DNA from: Klebsiella pneumoniae
GTDB taxonomy: Bacteria; Pseudomonadota; Gammaproteobacteria; Eutrophobiales; Eutrophobiaceae
Direction: 5' to 3'
Assembly (NCBI GenBank): GCA_945878555.1
Contig: CAMDWI010000010.1
Coordinates: 6,559-70,558 of the forward strand
Length of the DNA stretch: 64,000 nt
The notes under the pieces were generated by a model. The model did no database searches. It was not told the DNA's origin and was given only the letters and a program-made list of their open reading frames with translations. Each line of letters starts with the position of its first letter. Position 1 is the stretch's first letter. This document shows positions 40,088 through 64,000 of the stretch, in pieces. The position numbers and the translations under genes are program-made.

Positions 40088-41590
40088 TTATACCTGACCC
40101 AGAGCGGCGGTAGAAGGGAATACCAGTGATTTGATTACAACGGGTACGGCACCGGAGGTCGCTATCATCGCACCGATGTCGATAAAATCGAATTCCTTCA
40201 GTCTGATACCATCAATCGACACGACAGGGTTTTGCAGGTCACAGTCTGAGTGGCAATGCAGGCCTATCAAGCCGCCCACATCGCCTTCATTGACCAGTAC
40301 CAGAGGTGTGTCGGCAGAGAGCACCGCTGACATACCCTTGATCACACCACGACAGAACGCATCCAGTCGCGCGTAGGTTGCGGAACCCTCCCACCGGAAA
40401 CAGACCGCCACAGTCCGGCTACTGTCTGTCAGTTCCGAGCGGACCAGCGCCTCTGATACCGCATGGGCAATATCATCTATGACCAGCGTCTCGGTCTGCA
40501 GCGGTAAATCCGGGATAATGACCGGCATATTACGCAATGGCAGGCTGGCACCGGCAGAAACATATATGGTGTTACCACTGACCTGGATGGTGTACTGCGA
40601 GGCACCGATAACCGTGGCTCGTATACCTTGGGCAGGTATGGCCAGCCTGGGTCCCCAGTTTTCTGCACGTTTTCTCACTGCAGCGGCAAGCAGCGGTCCG
40701 AGATCCCCGAAATGACCACTCTCTTTACCGTAGATATATTCTGACACTCCGCCAGAAAAGGTCATGATATCCGGTATGACACGCGTGTCTTTAAGCGGCG
40801 CCAGACGTAACAGCGCGCTTGCTGCCTCGTCCAGTGGCGCGGCCCCCATCGCCTGCATTACGCAATCTGCCATCCGTTCAACCAGTGTATTGAGCTGGTT
40901 CGGGTTCAGTTGTGTACCAATTTCAATGTCGATACCTGCCTCGCTGGCAAATCGTCGGCCTGCCTCTTCCAGCCGGTAGACCCGGCCGTTTTCATCCACA
41001 CAGATAATACGTGCACCGACATCAATAACAGTCATGTCTGCGATATGGCCGGCATGACAGACCGAAATCTTCGACGTTCCCCCGCCGATATCGACATTCA
41101 TGACCCTGACATTATCACTGCGGGACATATCAACCGCACCGGAGCCGTAGGCTACCAGCGTAGTCTCCAGCGCGTCACCGGCACTGACGGCAACAAACTT
41201 GCCTGCCTGATTGGCAAACAGTTCACCTATGGCGCGGGCATTACTGCGTCTGACCGCGACCCCTGTCAGTATCAATGCGCCGGTGTCAATCTGATCCGGT
41301 AACAGGCTGGCGAGCTGATACTGCTGGCTGATAAACCGCCCCAGCGCATCTGCGTCTATGGTCGTTTCATCAGAGTAGGGTGTCAGCAACACCTCGGATT
41401 CGAATTCGACTTCACGTTTTGACACCAGATACCGGTTCCCGAATCGTTCCATCGTAATCCGGGAAAAAATGATGTGTGAAGTCGAGGATCCGATATCGAC
41501 ACCAACACTGAGCAGTTCGATCTCGTTTTCCTGTTCCAGTGTGCGACCGGCATTTGTGAAAATGATGGTATCGGTTGAAATATCTGACAT
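40088..41590 (-). CDS. EutA-like ASKHA-superfamily protein (ethanolamine-utilisation reactivase family), orphan
   Basis: 500 aa. The N-terminus LLSVGVDIGSSTSHIIFSRITM and the internal block VMNVDIGGGTSKISV...GARIICVDENGRVY align with the E. coli EutA motifs (LLSVGIDIGTTTTQVIFSRLEL; LNIDIGGGTANYALF). I see no eutBC genes in the window. Confidence 0.6.
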   Translation of the reverse strand: MSDISTDTIIFTNAGRTLEQENEIELLSVGVDIGSSTSHIIFSRITMERFGNRYLVSKREVEFESEVLLTPYSDETTIDADALGRFISQQYQLASLLPDQIDTGALILTGVAVRRSNARAIGELFANQAGKFVAVSAGDALETTLVAYGSGAVDMSRSDNVRVMNVDIGGGTSKISVCHAGHIADMTVIDVGARIICVDENGRVYRLEEAGRRFASEAGIDIEIGTQLNPNQLNTLVERMADCVMQAMGAAPLDEAASALLRLAPLKDTRVIPDIMTFSGGVSEYIYGKESGHFGDLGPLLAAAVRKRAENWGPRLAIPAQGIRATVIGASQYTIQVSGNTIYVSAGASLPLRNMPVIIPDLPLQTETLVIDDIAHAVSEALVRSELTDSSRTVAVCFRWEGSATYARLDAFCRGVIKGMSAVLSADTPLVLVNEGDVGGLIGLHCHSDCDLQNPVVSIDGIRLKEFDFIDIGAMIATSGAVPVVIKSLVFPSTAALGQV

Positions 41591-46269: not shown

Positions 46270-47289
46270 ATGTCGATGACGACTGAACAGCAGCCTGCTG
46301 CCGACCTGCCGAAGCTGGAGCAGGTGCATGACAGTATCGTTGCACTTGAGAATGAGGTCCGGAAACGTATTGTGGGTATGGACAAGGAGATGGATCAGAC
46401 CCTGATTTGTCTGTTTGCCGGTGGTCACATCCTGCTCGAAGGTGTACCTGGACTCGCCAAGACCCTGTTTTTCAAGACACTGGCCGAAGCGGCAGATGTC
46501 GAGTTTCGCCGTATTTCGTTTGCAGCAGATCTGTTACCCAAGGACATTATCGGAATCGAGCATTTTGATTTTGCCACCAAGAAGCTGGAGCTGGTGGTCA
46601 AGGGGCCGCTGCATACCAACTTCCTGTTAACGGATGAATTGAACCGTGCCCGTACCAGCTCAAAGGGTTCTGTACTGGAGCCGATGGAAGAAGGCCAGGT
46701 TACGACGGAGTTGGGGGGGACCTATAAACTGAAAGAACTGTTTATGGTAATCGCCACCCAGAATCCGGTGGAGGAAGAGGGTACCTTCGGCCTCGGCAGG
46801 GCAGAAAAGGACAGATTTCTGATGATGGTACCGCTCGGCTATCCCTCGCCGGAAGACGAGGAGACCATCATTACCCGCTACGGAGTTACGGGTGGTATGC
46901 CGGTTATCAAGCCGGTCATCCATGAAAAAGAAATACTGGCAGCACGCAAGGCCATCCGTTCCGGTGTGCATGTCGAGCCGTCAATCGTGCATAAAATCCA
47001 GCAGATCCTGAATGAGACCCGCCCGGAACGTACGGGGATAACCAGTATAAAACAGCTGGTTCAGCGTGGTGGTGGCGCGTCTCCCCGTGCTGGCCTCAGC
47101 ATGATCCAGGCAGCACGCGTCCATGCCGTATTGCAGGGTAATGCGTTTGTCCGACCGGATGATATTGCTGCCGTTGTATTACCGATATTGCGTCATCGTC
47201 TGGTCTTCAAGCCAGGTGAAGTTGAACTGGAAGAGACGGAAGTTCGCCTGCACGAAATTATTGATGAAATAATCAGCAAGGTGCTCTGA
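46270..47289 (+). CDS. MoxR-family AAA+ ATPase (second copy)
   Basis: RBS AGGAG. Walker A LEGVPGLAKT and Walker B LLTDELNRA. 339 aa; paralogous to 9088-10116. Confidence 0.85.
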   Translation: MSMTTEQQPAADLPKLEQVHDSIVALENEVRKRIVGMDKEMDQTLICLFAGGHILLEGVPGLAKTLFFKTLAEAADVEFRRISFAADLLPKDIIGIEHFDFATKKLELVVKGPLHTNFLLTDELNRARTSSKGSVLEPMEEGQVTTELGGTYKLKELFMVIATQNPVEEEGTFGLGRAEKDRFLMMVPLGYPSPEDEETIITRYGVTGGMPVIKPVIHEKEILAARKAIRSGVHVEPSIVHKIQQILNETRPERTGITSIKQLVQRGGGASPRAGLSMIQAARVHAVLQGNAFVRPDDIAAVVLPILRHRLVFKPGEVELEETEVRLHEIIDEIISKVL

Positions 47290-47291
47290 CC

Positions 47292-48191
47292 TTGGATAGC
47301 AAGCAACTTCTGTTGCAGATCCAGCGTCGGCCCGTCACCTTTGTGCCGGGCAAGAAGGTAGTTAGCATACTGCCTGGCGAGTGGACCAGCCCGTTTTCCG
47401 GCAAGGGGTACGAGCCGATGGGCTATCGTGACTTCCAGCTGGGTGATGATCCGCGCCGGATTAATCTGACCGCCTCTGCAAGACGGGGAATTCCGACCAT
47501 TGTTGAACGTGTCGCGCTGCGTGATTTTAATGTCATGGTTGTGGTCGATGGCTCACCGTCAATGCGGGTGCGGGACAAGATGGAGACCCAGATCAGCGCG
47601 GTCGCGCTACTGTTGTATTCTGCCTGGCAGGCTGAAACTACCTTCAGCTTCGGTATCCGGACTGAAACCGGTATACGCAGTTTTGGCCTCGGTATCGGTT
47701 CGCGCCATTTCTATCATCTTTACCGCGCATTATGGCACTTTTATTCCGGTACCGATGACGGACGCATGAAGGGTGTGCGGGTTCCGTTGAACAGTTGTCT
47801 GCCACCAAATGCGATGCTGCTTTATTGTTCAGACTTTCTTGAGGGCGACGGCAAGCTGATTGATATGGCAAGGTTATGGCGTTCAGTGCAACGATATGAC
47901 TTTATACCCGTAATCATCCAGGATGAACTTGAGTACAGCTTCCCGGACTTGCCTTCGAGTACATTCATACCCTTCTCCAATCCTGAAACCGGTGCAAGGG
48001 AAGAGATCTGGATATCACCGAAAATCGCACGTGACATACGCTCGGTCCATCAGGCGCGTTTTGCCGAGCTTACAGGCATGATGGCATCACGTGGACTCAG
48101 TCCCCTGCATTTTGATTCGGCAAATGTTGAAACACACAGCCGGGAGATTGATCGGTATTTCCGTAAACGCAAGGGCCGGAATGCGGCATGA
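47292..48191 (+). CDS. DUF58-family protein (second copy)
   Basis: TTG start 2 nt after the moxR stop. The DUF58 N-terminal pattern is ...GYRDFQLGDDPRRINLTASARRGIPTIVERV. Confidence 0.65.
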   Translation: MDSKQLLLQIQRRPVTFVPGKKVVSILPGEWTSPFSGKGYEPMGYRDFQLGDDPRRINLTASARRGIPTIVERVALRDFNVMVVVDGSPSMRVRDKMETQISAVALLLYSAWQAETTFSFGIRTETGIRSFGLGIGSRHFYHLYRALWHFYSGTDDGRMKGVRVPLNSCLPPNAMLLYCSDFLEGDGKLIDMARLWRSVQRYDFIPVIIQDELEYSFPDLPSSTFIPFSNPETGAREEIWISPKIARDIRSVHQARFAELTGMMASRGLSPLHFDSANVETHSREIDRYFRKRKGRNAA

Positions 48192-49918
48192 ACAGGATCT
48201 TGTCCGCGCTGGATAGGGTCTCCCTCAGGCTGATGCTGCTACCGGCACTCGCTGTAATGTTTATATGTGGCTTTATCTTCATAGCATCGCTGGGTGGCAC
48301 TGCCGGACATCTGGTCCGCTTCGAGCCACAGCAGTCCGGTGATTTGCCAGCGGATCAGCAAATCGGCGGCTGGGCCAGTCTGGACAAGGACAGCTATATC
48401 CTCGGTGAGCAGGCCGGTTTCAGCATTCGCATTCTGTATCGACCGGCTGCTGTCATCCCTGACTTTGATACCTTCAAACGTAACATCGGCTTTCTGCCGT
48501 TCGATCAGTTAAATTCCAGCGAAACTGAGCACGATATTGGCAAGGGGATCCGCGAGTATAGACTGGAATATACCCTGCATGTGATCGGCGCGAGAAAACC
48601 AGGCAGTTATCCGTTTAATCCCGCCGTGCTTCCGTATTCAAATGCCGGGGCCACAGGCAGTGATCTGCACACACTGAGGATCAACCGCCCGGAACTGCGT
48701 ATCGGCTCGCTCTATCACTGGGATGCGGGACTGATACCATTGCGACCGATCCGCGGTCACATACTGGAACAGCAAGCCTTGCGTCAGTCAGCCATGCTGG
48801 CAGGCGCTGTGGTGTTGTTGAGCATGCTGGCATTTTTACTCTGGCGATACGGAAGGCGCCGTCAACTGCATGAAATGAGCAGCGCTGAACAGCTCTGGTT
48901 CCAGTTCAGGCAACCGCGAGACCCGGCGATGGACAACCGGTCCGTGATGCTGGCATATGAACGGATCTTTACCCGCCTCTTGCAAGAGCAGATATCGATG
49001 GATCCGGAAATGTTCTGGTCCGGTCATCAGCCCGCAGATGATGCCTGGTGCGGCAGTGTCGATCAGGCGAGGACGCTGTTATGGCGTTTGTATCAGCCGG
49101 GAGAAACAGTGGATGACGATGTTCGTCTCATGCATGTATTACTGGCAGACAGGCTTGCTCTCAGTGTAGAGGAACAAAGACTGGTCGTTGAGCAACAACC
49201 TTCATTGATCGAGCGACTGAAGTTGCAACAGTCGGTGGCAACGGTAATTATCATTACAGGCATTAGCGGAGTGTCCCTGCTGGCACTTGCGGTGACGCCT
49301 GACATGTGGCTTGCCTCTGAGGTACGTAATTACAACCAGACTGTTGACCTTATCAATGCGTCCCATGGTTACGACGAAGACCTGTTGCTGGAATTACAGT
49401 CTTTTGCGGCAACTGCGGAGATACCGGAGATCCGGGCAGCGGCTTTTTATAATAGTGGCACGACCCGGGCCAGATACAGTTTTGCTGACAGTGGTCCTGC
49501 GGTCCAGTCCCGGATACTCGAACTGGTGTTTCAGGCAGAGACGGCGGAAGACCTGATGCAGACACTGTTGCTGAGTGAGATGTCTCCTTCGGAAGAAGAC
49601 GTGGTCAAAATGATGATAGCGGCAGCCGAGAAATTGTTGCAGGCCGAACTCGATCTTCAGGCGGCCACACGTGGACTGCGGGCCAGTGACGATGTCCTCA
49701 GAAATCTGGAACTGGTTACACGTTGGCGTCACGCGATTCTTACCCGTCTGTTGCAGTTACGTGAATTGTTCAGTACGAAGCCTGGCGAGGCGGGTGATGA
49801 AGAGATAATTTCAGATCAGGGTGTCGTTGATATTATCAACGCAAAGATACCGGAAGAATATGACGATGCCGAGATGGCCAAAGACAACAGCCACTACATA
49901 ATCTTTGAGCGGTTCTGA
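48188..49918 (+). CDS. Hypothetical membrane protein of the second Bat-like cluster (BatD-like topology)
   Basis: The ATGA overlaps the DUF58 stop. N-terminal TM, then a ~190-aa periplasmic segment, a central TM (AGAVVLLSMLAFLLWRY) and a long helical cytoplasmic domain. This is the same topology as 11007-12011. Confidence 0.5.
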   Translation: MNRILSALDRVSLRLMLLPALAVMFICGFIFIASLGGTAGHLVRFEPQQSGDLPADQQIGGWASLDKDSYILGEQAGFSIRILYRPAAVIPDFDTFKRNIGFLPFDQLNSSETEHDIGKGIREYRLEYTLHVIGARKPGSYPFNPAVLPYSNAGATGSDLHTLRINRPELRIGSLYHWDAGLIPLRPIRGHILEQQALRQSAMLAGAVVLLSMLAFLLWRYGRRRQLHEMSSAEQLWFQFRQPRDPAMDNRSVMLAYERIFTRLLQEQISMDPEMFWSGHQPADDAWCGSVDQARTLLWRLYQPGETVDDDVRLMHVLLADRLALSVEEQRLVVEQQPSLIERLKLQQSVATVIIITGISGVSLLALAVTPDMWLASEVRNYNQTVDLINASHGYDEDLLLELQSFAATAEIPEIRAAAFYNSGTTRARYSFADSGPAVQSRILELVFQAETAEDLMQTLLLSEMSPSEEDVVKMMIAAAEKLLQAELDLQAATRGLRASDDVLRNLELVTRWRHAILTRLLQLRELFSTKPGEAGDEEIISDQGVVDIINAKIPEEYDDAEMAKDNSHYIIFERF

Positions 49919-49927
49919 CAGGGCAGT

Positions 49928-50992
49928 ATGAACGCGCTGGCAGCGATAGTTGAATCAATCAGTTTCGCTACTCCCGAACTGGCGCTTTTGATATTGCCGC
50001 TGGTAATGATATTGATATGGCAGTTGTATGGGGATCGGAGGCTCGGTGCCCTGCAGCTTACCGGGCTTGAATATCTGGCAGGCTCCGGCATACGCAACAG
50101 CCAATCCAGAAAACGGTTACAGGTTGCGATGCGGTGCGTGATGGTTGCCGGGCTGGGACTCTTGCTCGCCGGGCCTGTTTATCGCTCCGCCACACCACTG
50201 TTTTCCCAGGATACCAGGGTATTACAAAGGAATTTTGTGGTGGCGTTTGATATGTCACCGTCGATGAATCTCCCTGCCAGTTCGAAAGGTTTTGGTGGTG
50301 ATGATTTGAAGGAAGGTGATGGTGGTGTTACCCGTTATGAGATGGCCAGAGATGCATTTCACGATTTTCTGGACAGGTTTCGGGGCGAGCGATTTGGACT
50401 GATCCTGTTCAGCACCGAACCCTTTTTTGCACGCTGGCCGACGATTGAGACGGAGAACCGTTTTGATGAGGTGCTGGAAAGCATACGACGTGGGTCGGGT
50501 ACCCAGCTGGAGGCGTTTTCCTCACTGACAAATATTGACAAGGGTTTGCTGATGGCACGCAAGGCCTTTAATGGAGAGGAAGGCGCGATCATCCTGATTT
50601 CAGATGCAGAGGACGATCTGGAGAACCTGGGGCGTGGTGTGCGTAGCCTGCGCCAGGCCGGAATTCGTTTATATACACTGGGGGTTGGAATACCGGACGA
50701 TATCCTGGCAAGGATATCGCAGGAATTTGCCGCGGACCCGGGTTTCCGGATATTCCGTGCAGATTCCGGGCAGGACATGGAAGAGGCCTATCGTGTTGTC
50801 AGCGAGATTGAGGAGTCGCCACAGTTTGTTGATGAGACCCGGGTCTTTGAGACGGATTTACGGGCCCCGTTAGCTGCACTACTCGCAATAATTGCGGTCT
50901 TGTTGCTAGTCATCAATGAAGTTATGTTCCATCAGACTGTTAGCATGAAACTATCATCCCGCCCTGTACTGAAGGTCAGCGATGGGTTTTGA
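49928..50992 (+). CDS. VWA-domain membrane protein (BatA-like, second cluster)
   Basis: N-terminal TMs, then a VWA domain with MIDAS FVVAFDMSPSMN, and a C-terminal TM (LAALLAIIAVLLLVI). Confidence 0.75.
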   Translation: MNALAAIVESISFATPELALLILPLVMILIWQLYGDRRLGALQLTGLEYLAGSGIRNSQSRKRLQVAMRCVMVAGLGLLLAGPVYRSATPLFSQDTRVLQRNFVVAFDMSPSMNLPASSKGFGGDDLKEGDGGVTRYEMARDAFHDFLDRFRGERFGLILFSTEPFFARWPTIETENRFDEVLESIRRGSGTQLEAFSSLTNIDKGLLMARKAFNGEEGAIILISDAEDDLENLGRGVRSLRQAGIRLYTLGVGIPDDILARISQEFAADPGFRIFRADSGQDMEEAYRVVSEIEESPQFVDETRVFETDLRAPLAALLAIIAVLLLVINEVMFHQTVSMKLSSRPVLKVSDGF

Positions 50993-51953
50993 TTATCCCT
51001 GGGTCCTGGCCCTGTTTGCAATGCTCGTACCACTGGTATGGGCGATGCGCAAGAGCGGGACAGTGACCAGGACAATACTGCTGAAGTTCCGCAGTGCGCC
51101 ACCGACATCCCGTTATTTCAGGTTGCGTAATCTATTTACCATTCTGTTTACTTCTGCGCTGGTGCTTGTCGGTGCAGGTCCGTATATCGAACCACAACAG
51201 ACAGCTGACTACCTGTTTCTGGTTGATACCTCACGCAGCATGCATGCACGCAACTCCTGTGACGAACCGACGTTTCTGGATCGCGCAAAAAATGTCATGT
51301 TCGATGTGATGGATGATGTACCCGAAGCCAGATTCGGAATCGTGGCCTTTGACAGGCTGGCTTTCCCGGTAACACAGCTGACCTTTAATCACAGTTATCT
51401 CCGCTCTGCCATCAATAACGGTGTGTTTGTAGGCATGACCTACCGGGCGACTGACACGGATCTGTTCAACGCACTAAAAGTGATTGCTGCCAAAAAGCAG
51501 ACCATGCCGGAGTTGTATGGAAATGTCGAATATGCCGTGCTGATAAGTGATGGTTATCTGGATGAAGAGGACTGGCGACAGAATATGGAACAGCCAATGA
51601 AGGACCTTTTGGCGTCCGGTATTACGCTTCTGGTCGTTGGTGTGGGTAATCCTGTCGACACACCAATCCCGGTAACGGATATTGATGAGGTATGCAGTGA
51701 TGCCCTGACTGAAATCGATGGCAAGACCATCCGGATCCCGTTGCGCAAGGATATCCTGCAGACTATCGCTGCAGGCGGGCAGGGTGAATATTTTGATGAG
51801 ACGACCACGGGGGAGCTGGTCAACTATCTGCGTGGCCGAACCCTGAAACAGGCGACCGATGATGTGCAGTTCGGAACCGATCAGCGTAAAAATATCGGAC
51901 TGATGTTTTTGTATCCGGCAACGCTGGCGCTGGCCGGTTTGTTACTTCTGTAG
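50982..51953 (+). CDS. VWA-domain membrane protein (BatB-like, second cluster)
   Basis: Overlaps the upstream gene by 11 nt. VWA MIDAS motif YLFLVDTSRSMH, with N- and C-terminal TMs. Confidence 0.75.
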   Translation: MGFDYPWVLALFAMLVPLVWAMRKSGTVTRTILLKFRSAPPTSRYFRLRNLFTILFTSALVLVGAGPYIEPQQTADYLFLVDTSRSMHARNSCDEPTFLDRAKNVMFDVMDDVPEARFGIVAFDRLAFPVTQLTFNHSYLRSAINNGVFVGMTYRATDTDLFNALKVIAAKKQTMPELYGNVEYAVLISDGYLDEEDWRQNMEQPMKDLLASGITLLVVGVGNPVDTPIPVTDIDEVCSDALTEIDGKTIRIPLRKDILQTIAAGGQGEYFDETTTGELVNYLRGRTLKQATDDVQFGTDQRKNIGLMFLYPATLALAGLLLL

Positions 51954-54293: not shown

Positions 54294-55265
54294 ATGGGAT
54301 TAATGGGTAAAATAAGCGGTCATACCGCAAAAAGGGGTGTTTTTTCAGCATTTTTATTGACAACTTGTGCACTGTCGGTATTTCTGAGTACCAACGTGTC
54401 AGCCCAGTTGACACCTGACAGACTGGATTCCGCAAATCGTGCCAACAACGAGGATCAGACTCCGCGCGATCCGATCCAGATTGCCAGCAATATCTGGTGG
54501 GTTGGTCATTCGGAAGTCGGTTCATTTCTGATAACTACCTCGGAAGGCCTGATCCTGATGGACACTACGTCGCCTGAACACGTGACATGGGTAATCGACA
54601 GTATCAAGAAGGCCGGTTTCAAACTTGAGGACATCAAGTATATTCTCAATTCACATCCTCATGCAGAACATATAGGAGGCCTGGCCCAGTTCAAAAAGGT
54701 CGCACCGAATGCAAAGGTAGTAACCTCGGCAGGAACAGCGGCAATCATTGCCAGCGGCGGTAAAAGCGATTTTCGCAATATGATGCAGGGTGATGAGGGG
54801 GCGGAATACTTCGAGCCGGTTCAGGTGGATGCCACGATTGGTGATATGGAAGAGATAAAACTCGGTGATGTGACCCTTGTTGCTCATATTACATCAGGCC
54901 ATACCCCAGGAGCCACAACCTGGACGATGAAGGTCATGGACAACGGTAAGGAATACAATGCTGTTTACATGAGTGGCATGTCAGCCTCGGGCGTCGACCG
55001 CGGCCCACTTATAAAGAACGAACTTTATCCGGAAATAGCAGATGACTTTGAAAAATCCTTTGCACATCTGAAGACGCTGCAGTGTGATTTCTATTTGTAT
55101 GCACGTGCGTCATCAATTGATCTGGACAAGAAAGTCGCCCTGAAAAAAGAGGGCAGCACCGCCGAAAATCCGTTTATTGACCCGGCAGGCTGCGCACATT
55201 ACATCAATTTTTATGAATCCAGATACAGAAAGCAGCTTGAAGAGGAACAGGCTGCCAAGATGTAG
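54294..55265 (+). CDS. Secreted metallo-beta-lactamase-fold hydrolase (subclass B3-like)
   Basis: RBS GAGGAGGGAG with a signal peptide. The motif NSHPHAEHIGG is an HxHxDH-type variant with Glu at the Asp position. Downstream His motifs are VAHITSGHTPGATTW. Confidence 0.7.
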   Translation: MGLMGKISGHTAKRGVFSAFLLTTCALSVFLSTNVSAQLTPDRLDSANRANNEDQTPRDPIQIASNIWWVGHSEVGSFLITTSEGLILMDTTSPEHVTWVIDSIKKAGFKLEDIKYILNSHPHAEHIGGLAQFKKVAPNAKVVTSAGTAAIIASGGKSDFRNMMQGDEGAEYFEPVQVDATIGDMEEIKLGDVTLVAHITSGHTPGATTWTMKVMDNGKEYNAVYMSGMSASGVDRGPLIKNELYPEIADDFEKSFAHLKTLQCDFYLYARASSIDLDKKVALKKEGSTAENPFIDPAGCAHYINFYESRYRKQLEEEQAAKM

Positions 55266-55374: not shown

Positions 55375-55899
55375 ATGAGCATATACAACACAGTAAAAAG
55401 CATTACAGGAATACTTCTGGCGTTCGGACCCGTGCTGGTGTGGGGGCATGCCCAGTTACTCGTGGCTCCAGCACCGGATGATCCGACACCAACAGCCTTT
55501 GTTTCACCCCTCCCTCGGGAAGATAACGTTCGTATGAAGGACTTGTTGCCGTGCGGTGGATTTCGCTCACAGCCGCCGGCCAGCGTAAAAGGGGAACCGC
55601 AGCGGTCATATACCACGGGTTCTACCATACGGGTACAGTGGAAGGAAACCAATGACCATACTGGTGTATGGCGTATCGATTTATCTGCAGATGAAGAAAA
55701 ATCATGGCAAGTCCTGTTCAATATGAAGGATGGTGCTGATGGGGAAATCAGTGAAGAAGCGCCAAAGTATTACTGGGCAGATATTACCCTGCCCTCCGGG
55801 ATAAAGTGTAAAAACTGCACGTTTCGCCTCACCCAGTCAATGGGGGAAATTGATGATGGAAATGACTATTTCTCCTGTGCGGATATCACAATAAATTGA
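55375..55899 (+). CDS. Small secreted hypothetical protein (predicted mature N-terminus begins with His)
   Basis: ORF 55339 (TTG)..55899; I prefer the ATG at 55375, downstream of AGGAG/GGGGG. Signal peptide MSIYNTVKSITGILLAFGPVLVWG; the predicted cleavage site VWG|HAQ leaves a His at +1. I recognise no family. Confidence 0.5.
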   Translation: MSIYNTVKSITGILLAFGPVLVWGHAQLLVAPAPDDPTPTAFVSPLPREDNVRMKDLLPCGGFRSQPPASVKGEPQRSYTTGSTIRVQWKETNDHTGVWRIDLSADEEKSWQVLFNMKDGADGEISEEAPKYYWADITLPSGIKCKNCTFRLTQSMGEIDDGNDYFSCADITIN

Positions 55900-56222
55900 C
55901 GAATGTATGAGTCGGATGAAATGACTTTTCGCCCGGGACTATCAGGTGGTGCAGGTTAATATGCAGACGGGACAGCGTCCGCTCAAATCCATTATTGTTT
56001 GATTTGGATCAAAAACGGAATTGCTTGTTTATATATACTTTAGGCTGGGCATCTTCAGCAAAACACACCAGACAGATGCTAAGATGTTGAATTGTATATA
56101 AAATTTGTTTTTCTGAACCTGTCTGCTTCTCATCGAAATGTGATAGCAGCTTAGTGAACAACTATAAAATATGTAGTAGACTGGTCGCGATTTATTCAGT
56201 AACAATTTTGGAGGGGTTTTAC

Positions 56223-58655
56223 GTGAGATTACGCCTTACTTTATTAGGCCTTTATTCTGTATTTTCCGTGGCAGGGGTGCAGGCGCAGGAGACACCAGCG
56301 GCTGAAAATTCGATTGCTTCATACCGTTCTGTTATGGATCGTTATTGTGTTACCTGTCATAACGAAACCCTTAAAACGGCAAACCTGATGCTCGACAAGG
56401 CCGATATAAACGACCTGAATGTTGAGCCGATGGTGTGGGAGAAGGTGTTGCTTAAAATGCAGACACGTTCCATGCCGCCGGTCGGTATGCCCAGGCCAGA
56501 TGAGTCGTTTTATATCGGATTTGGTGAACATCTTGAACGTGAACTTGATCTGGCCAATCAGGCTGATCCAAACCCAGGCAAGACTGTCTCTGCCCATCGT
56601 CTGAACCGTACTGAATATACCAATGTAATCCGCGACCTGCTGGCAGTTGATGTTGATGGTGCCTCTATGCTTCCTCCGGACAATTCGGGTGGTTTTGATA
56701 ACCTTGGCGATCTGTTATCGGTATCACAGGTGCTTATGGAGAAGTATATGGCTGCGGCACGGCAGGTCAGCCGTCTTGCTGTAGGTGACCCGACAATCGA
56801 CACGGACGTACATGAATACGTCGTATCCCCGTTCCTGCTCCAGAACGAACGGATGAATGAAGATCTGCCGTTTGGTACTCGAGGTGGTATAGCTGTAAAC
56901 CACCTGTTCCCGCTTGAAGGTGAATATGAGCTGAATGTTCGGCTGCTGCGTACCGATGGCACCGGTCTGGTCATAGGTATCGATGAACCACATCAGCTGG
57001 ATGTACGTGTAGATGGTAAGCGAGTTCAGTTGTTAACCGTAGGTGGTAAAAACGTAGCTCTTGCAATGGGTGCAGGGCGTGCAGACAAGACCCCGCCGGT
57101 ATTTGAGCAGGCCCAGTATGAACGTACGGCTGATGATGTGCTGAAAGTGCGATTCCCGGTCAGCGCAGGGGCGAAGTCGGTACAGGTAGCATTTCTGGAA
57201 GAGAATTTCGCCTGGGAAGGCCAGATACCCCAGCGTTCATATGATAGCTACATGAAATCCAGAATGGAGAATGATTACCAGCGCGCATGGACCGAACCTT
57301 CGGTCTCGAGCGTCACCATCACCGGGCCGTTTAATGTCAAAGGTGCCGGAAATACTGCGAGTAGGGAAAAAGTATTTATCTGTAACCCCAAAACCAGTAA
57401 AGCCGAGTCGGCGTGTGCAGAAAAAATAATCGCCAACCTGGCACGCAAGGCATTTCGCCGTCCGGTCAAGGATGCCGATATCAAACCGCTGATCTCGTTA
57501 TATGAACAGGGTGCCAAAGAGGGTGGTTCGTTTGAGTCAGGGGTACAGATGGCAATTGAAGGTCTGCTCGTCAGTACGGAGTTTCTGTTCCGTATCGAGC
57601 GTGAGCCTGCCAATGTAGCAGCCAACCAGAATTATGAGTTGAGTGACATCGAACTTGCATCACGATTGTCATTTTTCCTCTGGAGCAGTATCCCTGATGA
57701 AGAATTGCTGAAGGTCGCCGAGCAGGGCAAGCTTGGCAAGCCGGCGGTTCTGGACCAACAGGTCAAGAGAATGCTTGCTGATGAGCGTTCTACAACACTG
57801 GTAAGTAATTTTGCCGAACAGTGGCTGCTGTTGCGTAACCTGCCGCATACGGAAAAGAACCAGGAAATCTTCCCACAGTTTGACGAAAACCTGCGTAAGG
57901 ACTTCCAGAAAGAGACGGAGTTGTTCCTTGGCAGTATCTTCCGCGATGATCGTTCGATACTCGACTTGTTCAGGGCAGATTACAAGTACCTGAACGAAAG
58001 GCTGGCTCGCCATTACGATATCCCGGATGTCTATGGTAATCGTTTTCGCCGCGTATCTGTCTCGGATATAAATAAACAGGGGCTTTTAGCACAGGGTGCT
58101 GTACTCGCGATCACCTCCTATCCAAACCGCACCTCGCCGGTATTACGAGGAAAATGGGTTCTGGAGAATATTATGGCAGCGCCGCCACCGCCGCCACCGA
58201 CTGTGATACCACCACTACAGGAATCTGATGACAAGGGTAAGGTTATGTCGATGCGTCAGGCAATGGAGAAGCATCGCGCCAATCCGGTATGTGCAGTGTG
58301 CCACAATCGTATGGATCCTATAGGATTTGGTCTGGAGAATTTCAATCCGATAGGCCAGTGGCGTACCGAAGATGCCGGTAGCCCGATAGACTCGTCTGGT
58401 ATGCTACCAGACGGAACCAAGTTCCAGGGGCCAGCAGAATTGCAGAAGGCATTGTTGAACCAGTCTTCGGTCATAGCGAGTGCATTTACCCAAAAACTGC
58501 TGACCTATGCATTGGGGCGTGATATAGCCTATTACGATATGACATCAGTGCGCAAAATTGTGCACGAGTCCAAAGCGAGTGATTACAGGTTTTCATCAAT
58601 AGTTACCGGAATTGTTAACAGTTTACCATTTCAGATGAGGAGGACGGGCTCATGA
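56223..58655 (+). CDS. Large secreted multi-DUF protein with an N-terminal CxxCH (Planctomycete-type DUF1595/DUF1587/DUF1592/DUF1588/DUF1585-like; alternatively PSCyt/DUF1549/DUF1553-like)
   Basis: ORF 56154 (GTG)..58655. I prefer the GTG at 56223 with GGAGG 8 nt upstream, which gives the signal peptide (M)RLRLTLLGLYSVFSVAGVQAQE. The N-terminus has the heme-like motif DRYCVTCHNETLK. The block HRLNRTEYTNVIRDLL is, as far as I recall, the hallmark of these Planctomycete-type families. The family name is from memory. Confidence 0.7.
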   Translation: MRLRLTLLGLYSVFSVAGVQAQETPAAENSIASYRSVMDRYCVTCHNETLKTANLMLDKADINDLNVEPMVWEKVLLKMQTRSMPPVGMPRPDESFYIGFGEHLERELDLANQADPNPGKTVSAHRLNRTEYTNVIRDLLAVDVDGASMLPPDNSGGFDNLGDLLSVSQVLMEKYMAAARQVSRLAVGDPTIDTDVHEYVVSPFLLQNERMNEDLPFGTRGGIAVNHLFPLEGEYELNVRLLRTDGTGLVIGIDEPHQLDVRVDGKRVQLLTVGGKNVALAMGAGRADKTPPVFEQAQYERTADDVLKVRFPVSAGAKSVQVAFLEENFAWEGQIPQRSYDSYMKSRMENDYQRAWTEPSVSSVTITGPFNVKGAGNTASREKVFICNPKTSKAESACAEKIIANLARKAFRRPVKDADIKPLISLYEQGAKEGGSFESGVQMAIEGLLVSTEFLFRIEREPANVAANQNYELSDIELASRLSFFLWSSIPDEELLKVAEQGKLGKPAVLDQQVKRMLADERSTTLVSNFAEQWLLLRNLPHTEKNQEIFPQFDENLRKDFQKETELFLGSIFRDDRSILDLFRADYKYLNERLARHYDIPDVYGNRFRRVSVSDINKQGLLAQGAVLAITSYPNRTSPVLRGKWVLENIMAAPPPPPPTVIPPLQESDDKGKVMSMRQAMEKHRANPVCAVCHNRMDPIGFGLENFNPIGQWRTEDAGSPIDSSGMLPDGTKFQGPAELQKALLNQSSVIASAFTQKLLTYALGRDIAYYDMTSVRKIVHESKASDYRFSSIVTGIVNSLPFQMRRTGS

Positions 58656-59986
58656 TAATTTTCAAAAAGGCGATACCCAGGCGTACATTTTTGCGTGGTT
58701 TGAGTGCCTCGGTCGCATTACCGATGTTGAGCGCAATGGTACCGGCACTGGCGAATCCGAACGATCCTGCCAGCAAGATGCCGATTCGTGTTGGATACGT
58801 ATATACACCGAATGGCATAATCCGTGACAGGTGGACGCCTAAGGTCGCGGGCGCCAATTATGAAATGACCGACATCCTGAAACAGTGGGAGCCGTTCCGT
58901 GACCAGATGCTGGTACTCAGCCATATGGATAACGGTGCTTCCGAGAGCGTCAGCGGACACTCGGGTGGAAGTTCGATGTTCCTGACCGGTATCGAGCCGA
59001 ACAAGTCATTAAGCGAAGTTCGATGCGGAATTTCAGTGGATCAGGTTATTGCAGCCGAATTCGGCAAGCACACACCGCTTTCCTCGTTACAGGTTTGTAT
59101 CGAGAATGCTGCAGAACTTGCTGGCCAGTCTGCTGCCGGGTATAGCTCGGCTTATACCAACACCATATCCTGGGCCAGCCCGACTACCCCATTGCCGATG
59201 GAACATCGTCCTCGTGAAGTTTTCGAGCGTTTGTTTGGTGATGGTGGTACTGATCCTGCGGCCCGCCAGAGCCGTTTGAGCAGACAGCGCAGTATTCTCG
59301 ACTTTGTTCGAGAGGATATGGCAAGGGTAAACAAGACACTCGGGATGGAAGACAGCGCCAAGTTGAGTGAATATCTTGATGCAGTTCGTGGCGTGGAATT
59401 CCAGATTCAGAAGGCAGAAGCAAAAACAGATATGGAGTTGCCAGAAATGAATCGTCCAGTGGGTATCCCTGCCCATGGGGATCATCTCAAGTTAATGTAT
59501 GACCTGTTATTACTGGCGTACCAGACCGATATGACCCGGGTATTTACCTTTATGGTGGCCCGTGAATACAGTGAAATGGTATTTACCCATCTCGGTCACA
59601 AAGACCCCTACCATCCGCTGACACACCATCGCGGTGATCCGGTCAGGAAACGCCAGGCTGGTGAAATTGATGTATACCACGCCTCATTGTTTGGCGAGTT
59701 CCTGGGCAAACTGAAGGCAGCCAAGGATGCAGACGGTTCCTCAATGCTGGATAACTCGCTTCTGGTTTACGGTGCGGGAATGGGTGATGGTGACGTACAC
59801 AGCCAGTGGAACATACCAGTTGCGTTAATCGGTGGCGCTGGCGGCATAAAGGGTGGGCGTCATATAGCTTACAAGCAGGGTACACCGATGTGTAATCTGC
59901 ATGTGACTATGCTGAACAAACTGGGCATGCCTACAGAGACGTTCGGGAAGTCTTCCGGAGAGCTTGATCTGAGCCTTTCCGCATAA
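58652..59986 (+). CDS. Tat-signal protein, DUF1552-like (HxxSHH-family; alternatively DUF1501), partner of the upstream multi-DUF protein
   Basis: ATGA overlap with the upstream stop. The N-terminus IPRRTFLRGLSASVALPMLSAM is a twin-arginine motif with the LPxLxAM pattern I associate with DUF1552. The internal motif YHPLTHHRGDP resembles the DUF1552 HxxSHH motif. 444 aa. Confidence 0.65.
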   Translation: MIIFKKAIPRRTFLRGLSASVALPMLSAMVPALANPNDPASKMPIRVGYVYTPNGIIRDRWTPKVAGANYEMTDILKQWEPFRDQMLVLSHMDNGASESVSGHSGGSSMFLTGIEPNKSLSEVRCGISVDQVIAAEFGKHTPLSSLQVCIENAAELAGQSAAGYSSAYTNTISWASPTTPLPMEHRPREVFERLFGDGGTDPAARQSRLSRQRSILDFVREDMARVNKTLGMEDSAKLSEYLDAVRGVEFQIQKAEAKTDMELPEMNRPVGIPAHGDHLKLMYDLLLLAYQTDMTRVFTFMVAREYSEMVFTHLGHKDPYHPLTHHRGDPVRKRQAGEIDVYHASLFGEFLGKLKAAKDADGSSMLDNSLLVYGAGMGDGDVHSQWNIPVALIGGAGGIKGGRHIAYKQGTPMCNLHVTMLNKLGMPTETFGKSSGELDLSLSA

Positions 59987-60012
59987 CAGTAGATATTTAA
60001 AGAGGTTATTAG

Positions 60013-61833
60013 ATGAGCATGAAGGGGAAACGTTTGTCCGGTTGGGTGGCTCCATTACTCGTACTGTGTTCAGCAGCCAGTCTGGCTGCTGAACCTGATT
60101 ACCGCCTGGTTGAATCTGCGCGAAATCAGAACTGGCAGCAGGTGCAGGAACTAATCAAGGACAAGGCAGATGCAAGGTCTGCGCAACCAGACGGGGCGAC
60201 AGCGTTGGCCTGGGCTGTTTATTGGGATAATCTTGAAACAGTTAACCAGTTGATTGCAGCTGGCGCGGATGTGAATGCTGCGAATGACTATGGTGTAACT
60301 CCGTTGAATCTCGCTTGCAAGAACCGCAACCCCCAGATCGTGAAGGCCTTGCTAGAGGCGAAGGCAGATCCGAATATTGCGCTCTGGAGTGGTGAGACAC
60401 CGCTGATGACGGCTGCACGTACAGGCGTTGTCGAGGTTGCACAGTTGTTACTGGAACATGGTGCCAATATCAATGTTCAGGAACCAAAGCGTGGCCAGAC
60501 CGCATTAATGTGGGCTATCTCTTTCCGAAATCCGGAAGTGGCGAAGTTGTTGATTGATAAAGGTGCAGATGTTGCGCTCAAGACCAGAAAATATCAGGAA
60601 GCAGGTTACGCACCTATGGTGCTGGAGGCCTATGCTGGAAATGTTGAAGGCACTCCCCAGGGTGGTTATACCGCATTGATGTTTGCTGCCCGTGTAGGAG
60701 ATATGGAAACCAGTAAGTTATTGCTGGCGCATGGCGCAGTCATTAATGAATCCTCCGTTGAAGAGGGCCCGGCGCTGGTTATTGCCAGTGCGGGAGGATT
60801 TGAAGACCTTGCCTTGTATCTGCTTGAACAAGGTGCGGATCCCAAGAGTGCTGATAGTAATGGCATGACCTCTTTGCACTATACAATGCGAGATGGTCTC
60901 AAGCTGTTACACGGATATGAGATTGTCGCCGCCACCAGGGTATGTGGATATGCGGCTGATTCCCGTTGTAAACCGATTGAGACAGTTAGTCCGGAAGAAC
61001 TAGAGAAAGCAAATACACCAGGTTCAGGTCTGTATATCGTTGAAGGTACGGTAGACACGAATAATAATAACGACGGTGAAAGTATGACCGACGAAATTTT
61101 ACCTGGTGGCAATATGTATGAACTGGCAGAGGCCTTGCTGGCAAAAGGAGCAGACCCGGATGCGGAGATGAAGTATCCACCTTCCAGGTTACGTATGGAC
61201 AGTTTGCCCTGGCTAAATCTGGAAGGTGCTACACCTTTCTTTCTGGCGACAGCATCACTGGATACCTCTGCAATGGAGATGTTGCTGGAACACGGTGCAA
61301 AACCATTGGTTTCAACCAGACCCAATCCCGCCGTGCTGGAAAAACAGACGAAGGTCTACGCTGACGATAACCAGATTCTGGGTAACGGTTCTTCATTGAT
61401 GGTAGCTGTAGGTCTGGGTAAGAAGAATGACTTTACTCCTACGGAAGAGAAGAGTGCGCTTGATAGTGCCAAACGACTGGTTGCCCTGGGCGCAGATGTT
61501 AATGAAGCCACGGCTACGGGCTGGACAGCATTACATGCCGCTGCCTTTGTGGGTGCAAATTCGCTGGTCAGTTATCTGGTGGATCAGGGTGCAAAGGTCA
61601 ATGTTCAGACCGGTTGTGGACGCACACCATTAAGCCTTGCGCTGGGAGTAAGCGTAATTGGTCTGCTTGACCGTACTGTGCCGCATGAGTCTACAGCAGA
61701 CTTGTTAAAGTCGCTCGGGGCCGACGATGCAAAGGCCTCTGCGCCTGCTGGACAATGTGTGCTTGGCCGAGGTGGTCTGGAAGTTGATATCGAGTTGAAG
61801 AAGCAGATTGAGCAGGCCAAGAGCCAGCTTTGA
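60013..61833 (+). CDS. Secreted ankyrin-repeat protein
   Basis: RBS AAGAGG. Signal peptide MSMKGKRLSGWVAPLLVLCSAASLAA. There are at least 8 ankyrin-type repeats (e.g. GATALAWAVYWDNLETVNQLIAAGADVNAANDYGVTPLNLACKNRNPQIVKALLEAKADPN) with a non-repeat insert around residues 290-370. Confidence 0.8.
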   Translation: MSMKGKRLSGWVAPLLVLCSAASLAAEPDYRLVESARNQNWQQVQELIKDKADARSAQPDGATALAWAVYWDNLETVNQLIAAGADVNAANDYGVTPLNLACKNRNPQIVKALLEAKADPNIALWSGETPLMTAARTGVVEVAQLLLEHGANINVQEPKRGQTALMWAISFRNPEVAKLLIDKGADVALKTRKYQEAGYAPMVLEAYAGNVEGTPQGGYTALMFAARVGDMETSKLLLAHGAVINESSVEEGPALVIASAGGFEDLALYLLEQGADPKSADSNGMTSLHYTMRDGLKLLHGYEIVAATRVCGYAADSRCKPIETVSPEELEKANTPGSGLYIVEGTVDTNNNNDGESMTDEILPGGNMYELAEALLAKGADPDAEMKYPPSRLRMDSLPWLNLEGATPFFLATASLDTSAMEMLLEHGAKPLVSTRPNPAVLEKQTKVYADDNQILGNGSSLMVAVGLGKKNDFTPTEEKSALDSAKRLVALGADVNEATATGWTALHAAAFVGANSLVSYLVDQGAKVNVQTGCGRTPLSLALGVSVIGLLDRTVPHESTADLLKSLGADDAKASAPAGQCVLGRGGLEVDIELKKQIEQAKSQL

Positions 61834-61874: not shown

Positions 61875-61899
61875 GGCACCCGGTGGGTGCCTTTTTTTT
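61875..61899 (+). terminator. Rho-independent terminator (GGCACCC-ggt-GGGTGCC + T8)
   Basis: Read from the sequence 40 nt after the ankyrin-gene stop. Confidence 0.8.
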
Positions 61900-62023: not shown

Positions 62024-64000
62024 TTGAACAGGTTTTTCACCACAATCATCACCGGTATTGCCGGCGGCGTATTAATTGTTGCATCCGGAACGAGTCAGGC
62101 ACAACAGGCCTCTCCCTATCGTGCGTTACTCGACAAATATTGCGTAAGTTGTCATAACGAAACCCTGAAGACCGCAGGCCTGATGCTGGATAAGGTGAAC
62201 GTGGATGATATCAGCCAGAATCCACAAGTCTGGGAGCGCGTGATTATGAAGCTGACATTACGCGCCATGCCACCTGTAGGTATACCTGTTCGTCCTTCCG
62301 AGGATGAATATGACTCCATGCTCACCTATCTTCAATCCGGCCTCGATCATCTGGCTGAAGAGAATCCGGAGCCAGGCCGTGTGACCGTACACAGGCTGAA
62401 CCGGACAGAATATGCAAATGCCATCCGTGATCTGTTGGATATGCAGGTAGATACCACAAAGATGTTGCCCCCTGACAATATTGGTCAGGGGTTTGACAAT
62501 ATTGCAGAAGTACTCGCGGTGTCGCCGCTGCTTATGGAACAGTACATGTTTGCCGCAGGCAGGATCAGCCGTCTTGCCGTCGGACCTGCGGAAATGCAGC
62601 CCGCCAGTGAAACCTACAATATACCTGATACGTTCCGACAGGATGCCTATATGGGTGAGGACCTTCCATTTGGTTCCAGAGGAGGTTCGGTCATCCGCCA
62701 TCACTTCCCGATGGATGGTGAATATACCGTTAGCATCAAAATGCACAGAAGCATGGAAGGTTATATCCGCGGGATACAAAACGAACACAAGCTCGATGTG
62801 CGTTTGAATGATCAGCGTATTGGTATGATGAGTATAGGTGGCAAATTTATTGCCCGTTCAGGTCCCTTGTTCAATGAAAGCCAGAACCCGCAGTACGCAG
62901 GTGACCCCGAGCAGACTGGTTATGAATTTACGGCGGATGAAGAACTGGTATTGAAATTTCCGGCCAGCGCAGGTACCCATACACTGGGCGTTACATTTGT
63001 AGATGAATCAGTCAAACCGACCGGGATTATGACACCAGCATTGCTGTTACCCGATATTGGCCATTACAAGGGGGGTAATCCAGCGGTTGCCAGCGTTACT
63101 GTCAGCGGTCCCTATCAGGTCAAGGGTCCCGGTGATACACCGAGCCGTAACAGGATATTTACTTGCAAACCCGGGTCCACTGCCCCGGACAAGGACAAGC
63201 AGGCCTGTGCACATAGCATACTCGCAATGTTGGCGCGTCAGGCCTATCGTCGACCGGTAAATGATGAAGACATGGCTGATCTGATGTCACTATACAATAC
63301 CGGGGCGAACGAAAAGGGTTTTGAAAGCGGAATTGAACTGGCCTTGCAAAGTATTCTTGCCGGTCCCGAATTCCTGTTCCGGGTTGCGCAGGACCCAGCT
63401 GGTGTGACTGCAGGTACAGTTTATCCAATCAGTGATATTGAGCTGGCTTCCAGACTTTCATTTTTCCTGTGGAGTACCATCCCGGATAAAGAATTACTGG
63501 ATCTGGCTGAGCAGGGCAAGTTGCGTGAGCCGGGTATCCTCGAGGAACAAATTCGCCGGATGATGGCAGATACCCGCTCGGGTGCCTTGATAGATAATTT
63601 CGGAGAACAGTGGCTGGTGTTGCGTAATGTGGATATCGCTGCGCCACATCCGAATATCTTCCCTGAGTTTGATAATGAACTACGAGAGGCGTTCAAACAG
63701 GAAACCCGATTGTGGTTTGAAAGCATGATTCGCGAGGATCATAGTATTCTGGAGATGCTTACCTCGAACTATACATACGTGAATGAGCGTCTCGCGCGTC
63801 ATTACGGTATTCCTGACATATATGGCAGCCGGTTCCGTCGCATAAGTCTGGATGGTCTGGAAGAGCGCAAGGGATTGCTGGGCAAGGGCAGTCTGTTGCT
63901 GGCCACCTCGTATAACAACCGGACTTCACCGGTTTTGCGCGGCAAATGGGTACTGGAAAATCTGCTGGATATGCCACCACCGCCGCCGCCTGAAAATGTC
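62024..64000 (+). CDS. Second copy of the large CxxCH multi-DUF protein (paralog of 56223-58655); 3' end beyond the window
   Basis: The frame is open from the stop at 62000-62002 to the window end. I propose the TTG start at 62024 with AGGAG 8 nt upstream; the signal peptide is ...FFTTIITGIAGGVLIVASGTSQAQQ. The translation is collinear with 56223-58655 (LLDKYCVSCHNETLKTAGLMLDK...; HRLNRTEYANAIRDLL...; SFFLWSTIPDKELLDLAEQGKL...). Confidence 0.7.
   Translation, partial: MNRFFTTIITGIAGGVLIVASGTSQAQQASPYRALLDKYCVSCHNETLKTAGLMLDKVNVDDISQNPQVWERVIMKLTLRAMPPVGIPVRPSEDEYDSMLTYLQSGLDHLAEENPEPGRVTVHRLNRTEYANAIRDLLDMQVDTTKMLPPDNIGQGFDNIAEVLAVSPLLMEQYMFAAGRISRLAVGPAEMQPASETYNIPDTFRQDAYMGEDLPFGSRGGSVIRHHFPMDGEYTVSIKMHRSMEGYIRGIQNEHKLDVRLNDQRIGMMSIGGKFIARSGPLFNESQNPQYAGDPEQTGYEFTADEELVLKFPASAGTHTLGVTFVDESVKPTGIMTPALLLPDIGHYKGGNPAVASVTVSGPYQVKGPGDTPSRNRIFTCKPGSTAPDKDKQACAHSILAMLARQAYRRPVNDEDMADLMSLYNTGANEKGFESGIELALQSILAGPEFLFRVAQDPAGVTAGTVYPISDIELASRLSFFLWSTIPDKELLDLAEQGKLREPGILEEQIRRMMADTRSGALIDNFGEQWLVLRNVDIAAPHPNIFPEFDNELREAFKQETRLWFESMIREDHSILEMLTSNYTYVNERLARHYGIPDIYGSRFRRISLDGLEERKGLLGKGSLLLATSYNNRTSPVLRGKWVLENLLDMPPPPPPENV

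Follow-up and report, generated by a model that had tools for sequence, protein, structure and literature searches.

A Sec-type ankyrin-repeat protein encoded with a PSD/DUF1592 cytochrome and a DUF1552 protein is a probable periplasmic accessory component of the pair

A 64,000-nucleotide stretch of contig CAMDWI010000010.1 (Klebsiella pneumoniae, GTDB family Eutrophobiaceae; GenBank assembly GCA_945878555.1), referred to as the window, was analysed around an ankyrin-repeat gene at positions 60013-61833. The gene product, here termed Ank, is encoded directly behind a PSD/DUF1592-family cytochrome (PSD) and a DUF1552 protein. Judged from sequence, Ank is very probably a third working part of the PSD/DUF1552 enzyme system, and the reading favoured here is that it probably serves this pair as a dedicated periplasmic accessory subunit or adaptor. 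A first-pass annotation of the window had proposed a scaffold for the two upstream gene products; the functional coupling in that proposal was supported, while scaffolding itself is plausible but unproven, and presenting or maturation roles are also possible.

The trio and the features that delimit it are arranged as follows.

56223-58655, + strand: PSD/DUF1592-family dihaem c-type cytochrome (trio gene 1), 810 aa; identified by Pfam and sequence reading
58652-59986, + strand: DUF1552 (HXXSHH) protein (trio gene 2), 444 aa; Pfam E = 3.1e-89
59987-60012, + strand: intergenic spacer of 26 nt, carrying the ribosome-binding site AAGAGG (60000-60005), 7 nt upstream of the Ank ATG
60013-61833, + strand: exported ankyrin-repeat protein (trio gene 3), 606 aa, 'long' subfamily; identified from the list of open reading frames (ORFs) and Pfam
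61875-61899, + strand: intrinsic terminator with a 7-bp GC-rich stem, GGT loop and T8; identified by sequence and folding
62024-64000, + strand: second PSD/DUF1592 dihaem cytochrome gene, start only; identified by Pfam (PSD4, PSD3, PSD5, PSCyt3) and tblastn

The PSD ORF opens at 56154, and its probable start is the GTG at 56223 behind a GGAGG sequence; PSD homologues of 806-835 aa match this 810-aa start choice. The start of the DUF1552 gene overlaps the PSD stop codon by 4 nt (ATGA). The stop codon of DUF1552 is complete at 59986 and the Ank ATG lies at 60013, so that the Ank gene follows closely, as annotated in the first pass, with a gap of 26 nt instead of the 27 nt given there. A consensus scan of this gap gave no promoter-like or terminator-like site, and promoter-like sites across the region were at chance level (10 found, 13.4 expected); a separate Ank promoter, one of two outcomes named in the first-pass annotation as speaking against its reading, was not seen in the gap. 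The strong terminator annotated after the Ank gene was confirmed. Its sequence is GGCACCC-GGT-GGGTGCC at 61875-61891 with T8 at 61892-61899, and the segment 61830-61905 folds with a minimum free energy of -30.6 kcal/mol (z = -4.24), a value reached by 0/200 shuffled sequences. The consensus scan had missed this terminator despite its fit to the scan's stated criteria, and the terminator was confirmed by folding. Because the gap is 26 nt with a ribosome-binding site, no terminator precedes the Ank gene and a strong one follows it, Ank is most likely co-transcribed with the PSD and DUF1552 pair, as far as sequence signals indicate.

Linkage of the three genes was surveyed in two directions. The forward survey started from long-type Ank homologues, and all 11 distinct contexts carried PSD, DUF1552 and Ank genes in this order on one strand. 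These contexts were the window, L001 (equivalent to L002, L003 and L012), L004, L005, L006 (equivalent to L007), L008, L009, L010, L091, L092 and one further contig. The DUF1552-Ank gap in homologous loci was 14-58 nt in 8/9 called gene pairs, and a second complete trio was present in 5 of the 11 loci. For the reverse survey, metagenome contigs were scanned with a DUF1552 alignment and the best 80 of 570 relatives were kept. Their DUF1552 proteins were 43-73% identical to that of the window; relatives below ∼43% identity lie outside the survey. Loci were classified by tblastn and ORF extraction.

An adjacent same-strand pair of PSD and DUF1552 genes was kept in all related loci. An Ank-family gene adjoined the pair in 55/80 reverse-survey loci, and all 25 loci where none was seen were cut on at least one side. 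Every locus whose pair was flanked by at least 1.8 kb on each side carried an Ank gene (21/21). These fully evaluable loci were diverse, comprising 20 clusters at 90% and 18 clusters at 70% DUF1552 identity. Four arrangements were found among the loci with an Ank gene, one locus being counted under two of them.

Ank downstream of the pair, same strand: 40 loci
Ank upstream of the pair, divergent: 10 loci
Ank upstream of the pair, same strand: 3 loci
Ank downstream of the pair, convergent: 3 loci

Since adjacency of Ank survives rearrangement, selection on proximity is indicated, not merely inherited synteny, and adjacency of this kind speaks more strongly for functional coupling than a conserved gene order does. 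The linkage on which the first-pass annotation had based its reading therefore recurs across genomes, in the forward contexts and in all fully evaluable reverse loci. Sources of the trio loci were Gammaproteobacteria, including Woeseiaceae, and other metagenome lineages. In L009 (5754-9887) two ankyrin genes come after a single PSD-DUF1552 pair, and the leading one is split into ORFs of 437 aa and 200 aa; the split gene may be a frameshift or a decaying duplicate.

The ankyrin ORF with a signal peptide that had been annotated at 60013-61833 was recovered exactly, with 606 aa and a Sec-type N-terminus by heuristic assignment. Ank was matched by Ank_2 with 195.6 bits (cut-off 27.3, E = 1.7e-58) and by Ank with 186.6 bits (cut-off 21.1, E = 6.8e-57), and was far above threshold for every ankyrin Pfam model (Ank, Ank_2, Ank_3, Ank_4, Ank_5). 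An AlphaFold2 model was generated from 85 homologues, with a predicted local distance difference test score (pLDDT) of 89.4 and a predicted template modelling score of 0.86. The model contains ∼13 helix-pair ankyrin repeats, and the earlier count of 'at least 8' holds as a lower bound; the repeat register was checked against the 33-residue ankyrin consensus. The best PDB matches of the model in Foldseek were 12-repeat solenoids (E = 1e-20 to 1e-22), headed by 5y4f (human ankyrin-B R13-24) and 1n11 (ankyrin-R D34) with target template modelling scores of 0.79-0.80; extended designed ankyrin-repeat proteins were matched as well. Eukaryotic ankyrin-R/B and designed ankyrin-repeat proteins (DARPins) share with Ank the elongated 12-repeat solenoid and a concave groove binding peptide or protein (5y4f, 1n11, 6mol). 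Their identity to Ank is only 20-26%, a generic repeat similarity, and the eukaryotic ankyrins are cytoplasmic and lack a signal peptide, a 72-aa insertion within a repeat and the conserved cysteines. The parts of the Ank gene were delimited as follows.

60013-60087, + strand: Sec-type signal peptide, residues 1-25, with predicted cleavage between SLA and AE; heuristic and family pattern
60097-60897, + strand: repeats R1-R7 and helix A of R8, residues 29-295; helix pairs of the model
60898-61113, + strand: 72-aa insertion within R8, residues 296-367; alignment to the shortest homologues and model
61114-61830, + strand: helix B of R8, R9-R13 and C-terminal tail, residues 368-606; alignment and model

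Residues 1-25, MSMKGKRLSGWVAPLLVLCSAASLA, precede AE at the predicted cleavage site; they comprise a K/K/R n-region, a 10-aa hydrophobic core scoring 2.39 on the Kyte-Doolittle scale and the cleavage motif S-L-A. The Sec call is heuristic; a comparable signal-type N-terminus was present in 116/118 full-length Ank homologues. Across the family the signal segment is hydrophobic without sequence conservation, which starts only near residue 29, at the motif D-L-R-L-V-x-A. In the model the signal region is a helix of low confidence (pLDDT 51-64). Assignment of Ank as a lipoprotein was rejected: the residue at -1 before C19 is Leu and there is no lipobox.

A non-repeat insert of ∼80 aa had also been annotated. 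The insert is real and measures 72 aa (residues ∼296-367), separating the two helices (A and B) of repeat 8. A conserved, predicted beta-hairpin with C311 and C319 on its two strands is followed by a short helix and then by a variable, gappy loop at ∼339-360 that includes an N-rich stretch. The first ∼40 residues of the insert are conserved and the loop has a pLDDT of 56-70. Compared by itself with 1.84 billion representative proteins, the insert matched only fragments of the same family and repetitive noise. A 25-aa hairpin (residues 191-215) between R5 and R6 is present only in the long subfamily, and segment 437-456 and the tail from ∼580 are likewise specific to it. The C-terminal part holds C535, C582 and a terminal helix at 589-605. 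Cysteine conservation is 99% for C311 and C319 and 100% for C535 and C582, and two disulfides, C311-C319 and C535-C582, are probably formed, as fits an oxidising compartment.

DNA-level repeats were not found within the Ank gene, which indicates that the repeats are old, and recent repeat expansion was rejected as an origin. More than 120 clusters of full-length Ank relatives are listed in public data with 50-93% identity; named sources are metagenome-assembled genomes of Gammaproteobacteria, Woeseiaceae and Terriglobia, the Terriglobia homologue being on a 2.6-kb contig. The description of a secreted bacterial ankyrin protein as unusual was accordingly overstated, as periplasmic ankyrin proteins associated with catalase are also already known.

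PSD carries the Pfam series PSD3-PSD5-PSD4-PSCyt3-PSD2 (DUF1587/1595/1592/1588/1585), all above cut-off. From the GTG start it has a signal peptide, VRLRLTLLGLYSVFSVAGVQA, followed by QE after the cleavage site. The two CxxCH motifs (at C65 and C713 of the ORF) were invariant in 36/36 homologues, which identifies PSD as a dihaem c-type cytochrome. The DUF1552 protein has a twin-arginine signal, PRRTFLRG, with an invariant RR motif, and its structure model contains the core alpha/beta fold of the alkaline-phosphatase superfamily. The canonical metal-binding Asp at the end of strand 1 is not evident (RVGYVYTPNG), nor is a conserved motif with a Ser/Thr/formylglycine nucleophile; the protein has six invariant His residues instead. 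The most conserved DUF1552 stretch (residues ∼150-197, ...YTNTISWxSPTTPLPMEHRPRExFERLFGD) has the lowest model confidence (pLDDT 30-46), and by the model it could be a region that folds only against a partner. Neither PSD nor DUF1552 had a meaningful PDB relative by sequence or profile search, and neither had an NCBIfam name. Compartment signals agree for the three proteins, with Sec signals on Ank and PSD and a twin-arginine signal on DUF1552. From these export signals and the CxxCH motifs of PSD, Ank, PSD and DUF1552 are predicted to meet in the periplasm.

Ank homologues fall into a long and a short subfamily, which were compared as follows.

Ank length: long, 586-631 aa; short, 440-550 aa for most
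Four conserved cysteines: long, yes; short, no
25-aa hairpin (191-215): long, yes; short, no
Intra-repeat insert: long, yes; short, none or a 17-22-aa remnant only
Extra segment 437-456: long, yes; short, no
C-terminal tail: long, yes; short, no
Identity of the DUF1552 partner to the query: long, at least 64%; short, 43-51%

Common to both forms are a signal peptide and, at the mature N-terminus, the motif D-L-R-L-V-D-A-V-K, and D60, N104, E128 and Q162 are conserved in both. The two forms were never paired with the DUF1552 type of the other form. Pairwise identities of the three proteins were correlated over 36 complete trios (Ank-DUF1552, r = 0.79; Ank-PSD, r = 0.87; PSD-DUF1552, r = 0.85; Mantel p = 5e-4), and Ank evolves fastest of the three. 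For the groove, the canonical ankyrin target-binding positions were taken as repeat positions 2, 3, 5, 13, 14 and 33. Within the long family these positions were more conserved than the outer face (entropy 1.24 versus 1.87 bits, p = 5e-5), and across both subfamilies the difference vanished (2.27 versus 2.16 bits). Conservation of the groove within the long family but not across subfamilies is the pattern expected of a partner-specific interface.

On the favoured reading, Ank would be Sec-exported as a soluble periplasmic solenoid of ∼13 repeats stabilised by two disulfides. Its concave groove would bind one or both of PSD and DUF1552, and this binding may assemble, stabilise or position a PSD/DUF1552 complex. 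The role would parallel, by analogy, that of the small periplasmic AnkB proteins that support catalase KatB. Several points weigh against this reading. Physical binding of Ank to PSD or DUF1552 is inferred, as are the choice of partner and the chemistry of the two enzymes. Correlated divergence is expected for any co-inherited genes. In 13/55 loci Ank is on the other strand or upstream, so that co-transcription does not hold throughout. For Ank, the calls of a signal peptide and of disulfides are heuristic, and the DUF1552 structure model is of moderate confidence only (pLDDT 67). Planctomycetes and Verrucomicrobia pairs are described, in the passages of the source covered, as two-gene units, and Ank may therefore be dispensable for the basic chemistry.

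The alternative that survives best is that Ank presents a substrate, although it is judged unlikely. The groove would in this case bind the substrate of the system, for instance an extended peptide, a protein or a polymer imported via neighbouring TonB-dependent receptors, and hand it over to the DUF1552/cytochrome enzyme, with no stable binding of that enzyme. Genes for TonB-dependent receptors flank the trio in 8/11 long-type contexts (L001, L004, L005, L008, L009, L010, L092 and the one further contig), and the closest fold matches of Ank, such as 5y4f, are long solenoids that bind extended peptides. A groove conserved within subfamilies and differing between them fits different substrates equally well, and the fast evolution of Ank was also counted for such a role. 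Against this, ankyrin repeats are mostly known as protein-protein modules, and a pure substrate binder needs no such tight co-divergence with both enzymes (r 0.79-0.87). The trio of the window is itself not adjoined by a TonB-dependent receptor, the nearest being at 37290-39905, 16 kb away.

Ank as a transient maturation factor is ranked next and is held to be improbable. Here Ank would hold DUF1552 or the cytochrome during cofactor loading or docking and be absent from the mature enzyme, comparable to Cj1386. Both partners are cofactor proteins, PSD with its two invariant CxxCH motifs and DUF1552 being Tat-exported and His-rich. However, c-type haem is attached covalently by dedicated maturation systems and Tat substrates normally receive their cofactor before export, so that little is left for a periplasmic chaperone to do. 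A ∼580-residue, 13-repeat protein at a one-to-one gene ratio in every trio, duplicated ones included, is also more like a subunit than a catalytic chaperone. Precedent for maturation is provided by ankyrin proteins described as promoting haem binding or proper conformation of catalase (passages of PMC10294975, citing Flint & Stintzi 2015 and Howell 2000). In the same source, Cj1386 of Campylobacter jejuni is an ankyrin-containing haemin-binding protein that traffics haemin to KatA (PMC10294975, in the part covered). Ank resembles Cj1386 as an ankyrin protein that is encoded beside a haem enzyme and, in the case of Cj1386, acts on its maturation. It differs in that the haem partner is a c-type cytochrome with covalent haem and that no haem-binding motif was identified in Ank.

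The closest functional precedent for an accessory protein is found with the catalases. For ankyrin proteins of the AnkB/AnkA type, interaction with the cognate catalase is reported, together with promotion of, and a need for them in, its full activity (PMC10294975; PMC12754779, in the passages covered). Cases given in those passages are katB-ankB of P. aeruginosa, AnkB-CatB of Xanthomonas, katB-ankB and katA-ankA of Myxococcus, and an ankyrin-katE operon of Leptospira (PMC10294975; PMC12754779). As proposed for Ank, whose export is predicted, these exported bacterial ankyrin proteins are encoded in one operon with a periplasmic haem enzyme and dedicated to it. The partner there is a catalase, whereas here it is a PSD/DUF1592 cytochrome together with DUF1552, and no catalase domain was found in 54-64 kb of the window or in any homologous locus. 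AnkB proteins are small, with <200 aa and ∼4 repeats, compared to 606 aa and ∼13 repeats for Ank. Ank is a functional analogue of AnkB and not a member of the AnkB family.

That Ank is an effector secreted against eukaryotic hosts or grazers, or an unrelated neighbour gene, is very improbable: bacterial ankyrin repeats are best known from host-associated effectors and the top NCBIfam matches of Ank are models of Legionella Dot/Icm Ank effectors, but all 12 effector-model matches score 17-109 bits against cut-offs of 300-1400 (the best, AnkY/LegA9, 109 against 600) and indicate generic repeat similarity, the protein has a predicted classical Sec signal, no type IV secretion gene was found in the 64-kb window or in the flanks of any surveyed locus, and adjacency to the pair holds in 21/21 and 11/11 loci irrespective of rearrangement. 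The first-pass annotation had likewise argued against a eukaryote-targeting effector, and its view is upheld by the Sec signal, the low effector score and the near-obligate linkage to two periplasmic proteins. The trio was also considered as an anti-phage defence system and this was rejected; PADLOC gave only generic ankyrin-containing models for Ank and no match for PSD or DUF1552.

A stronger form of the favoured reading is tentative. In this form PSD, DUF1552 and Ank would make up a hitherto unrecognised three-subunit periplasmic metallo-redox enzyme with Ank as an obligatory structural subunit, widespread in sediment Gammaproteobacteria (Woeseiaceae-like) and with the short form in other phyla. 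If so, Ank would be the first ankyrin protein integral to a haem/metal enzyme complex of bacteria outside the catalases. Pairing specificity would then be encoded by the groove residues and inserts peculiar to each subfamily and would prevent cross-talk between the paralogous trios of one genome.

The PSCyt3/PSD-DUF1552 combination has been described as a conserved two-gene pair of unknown function in Planctomycetes and Verrucomicrobia, and PSCyt/PSD-DUF1552 modules have been flagged as lacking a known function since the Rhodopirellula genome (PMC5615132, in the passages covered). The pair of the window has the same Pfam families, order and adjacency; in those passages only a pair is described, with no ankyrin third gene. 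Literature naming DUF1552, DUF1592, PSCyt3 or DUF1501 contained no functional study and no ankyrin partner in the passages covered. PSCyt/PSD-DUF1552 pairs are abundant in environmental bacteria, and a large clade of them carries a third, near-obligate component. In this clade all three parts are predicted to be periplasmic, and the fold of DUF1552 is of the alkaline-phosphatase type, with a site rich in His. Periplasmic ankyrin proteins that serve one enzyme as dedicated accessories are already known, and the new part is the attachment of such a protein to a pair of cytochrome and phosphatase-fold protein. The trio gives experimentalists a handle on an uncharacterised enzyme pair via its ankyrin protein. 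It would also broaden the role of bacterial ankyrin proteins, which, besides host manipulation and catalase support, may be dedicated subunits of periplasmic enzymes in free-living bacteria.

Further features of the locus were recorded around the trio. The 324-nt AT-rich stretch 5' of the PSD gene (55900-56222) has blocks conserved in L005, among them TGATTTnGATCAAAAC and a stretch of ∼70 nt directly in front of the ribosome-binding site. This leader could hold a promoter, operator or leader element; Rfam gave nothing in 53.3-64 kb, the 324-nt stretch included. Downstream, the second PSD gene at 62024 is 46% identical to gene 1; it begins 125 nt behind the Ank terminator and is cut by the end of the window. 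Its counterpart in L005 precedes a DUF1552 gene and an Ank gene of the short type, and by this arrangement the window probably ends within a second trio. Between the two trios of L005 lies a TonB-dependent receptor gene, which the window lacks. The receptors beside 8/11 trios hint that the substrate of the system is imported across the outer membrane.

Two genes for secreted proteins lie upstream of the trio. At 54294-55265 (+ strand) a secreted protein of metallo-beta-lactamase fold is encoded, matching the NCBIfam subclass B3 model with 256 bits (cut-off 240). Metallo-beta-lactamase homologues adjoin trios in L001, L005, L010 and L011, and the gene may belong to the functional neighbourhood of the trio. 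At 55375-55899 (+ strand) a small secreted protein has weak LPMO_10 / BIM1-like matches, and its score with the SCE4755 polysaccharide-monooxygenase-like family is 69.7 bits, just under the cut-off of 75. His follows directly after the predicted signal cleavage site, between VWG and HAQLL, as in copper His-brace proteins, and the protein is kept in L005 at the same position with 72% identity.

Further upstream, 46270-51953 (+ strand) contains a MoxR-type AAA ATPase, a DUF58 protein, an ORF without a Pfam match and two VWA/BatA-like genes, which together make up a Bat/MoxR cluster of the usual kind. Upstream of it lie genes for an amidohydrolase (43718-45934) and an EutA-like protein (40088-41590), and the cluster and both genes look ordinary.

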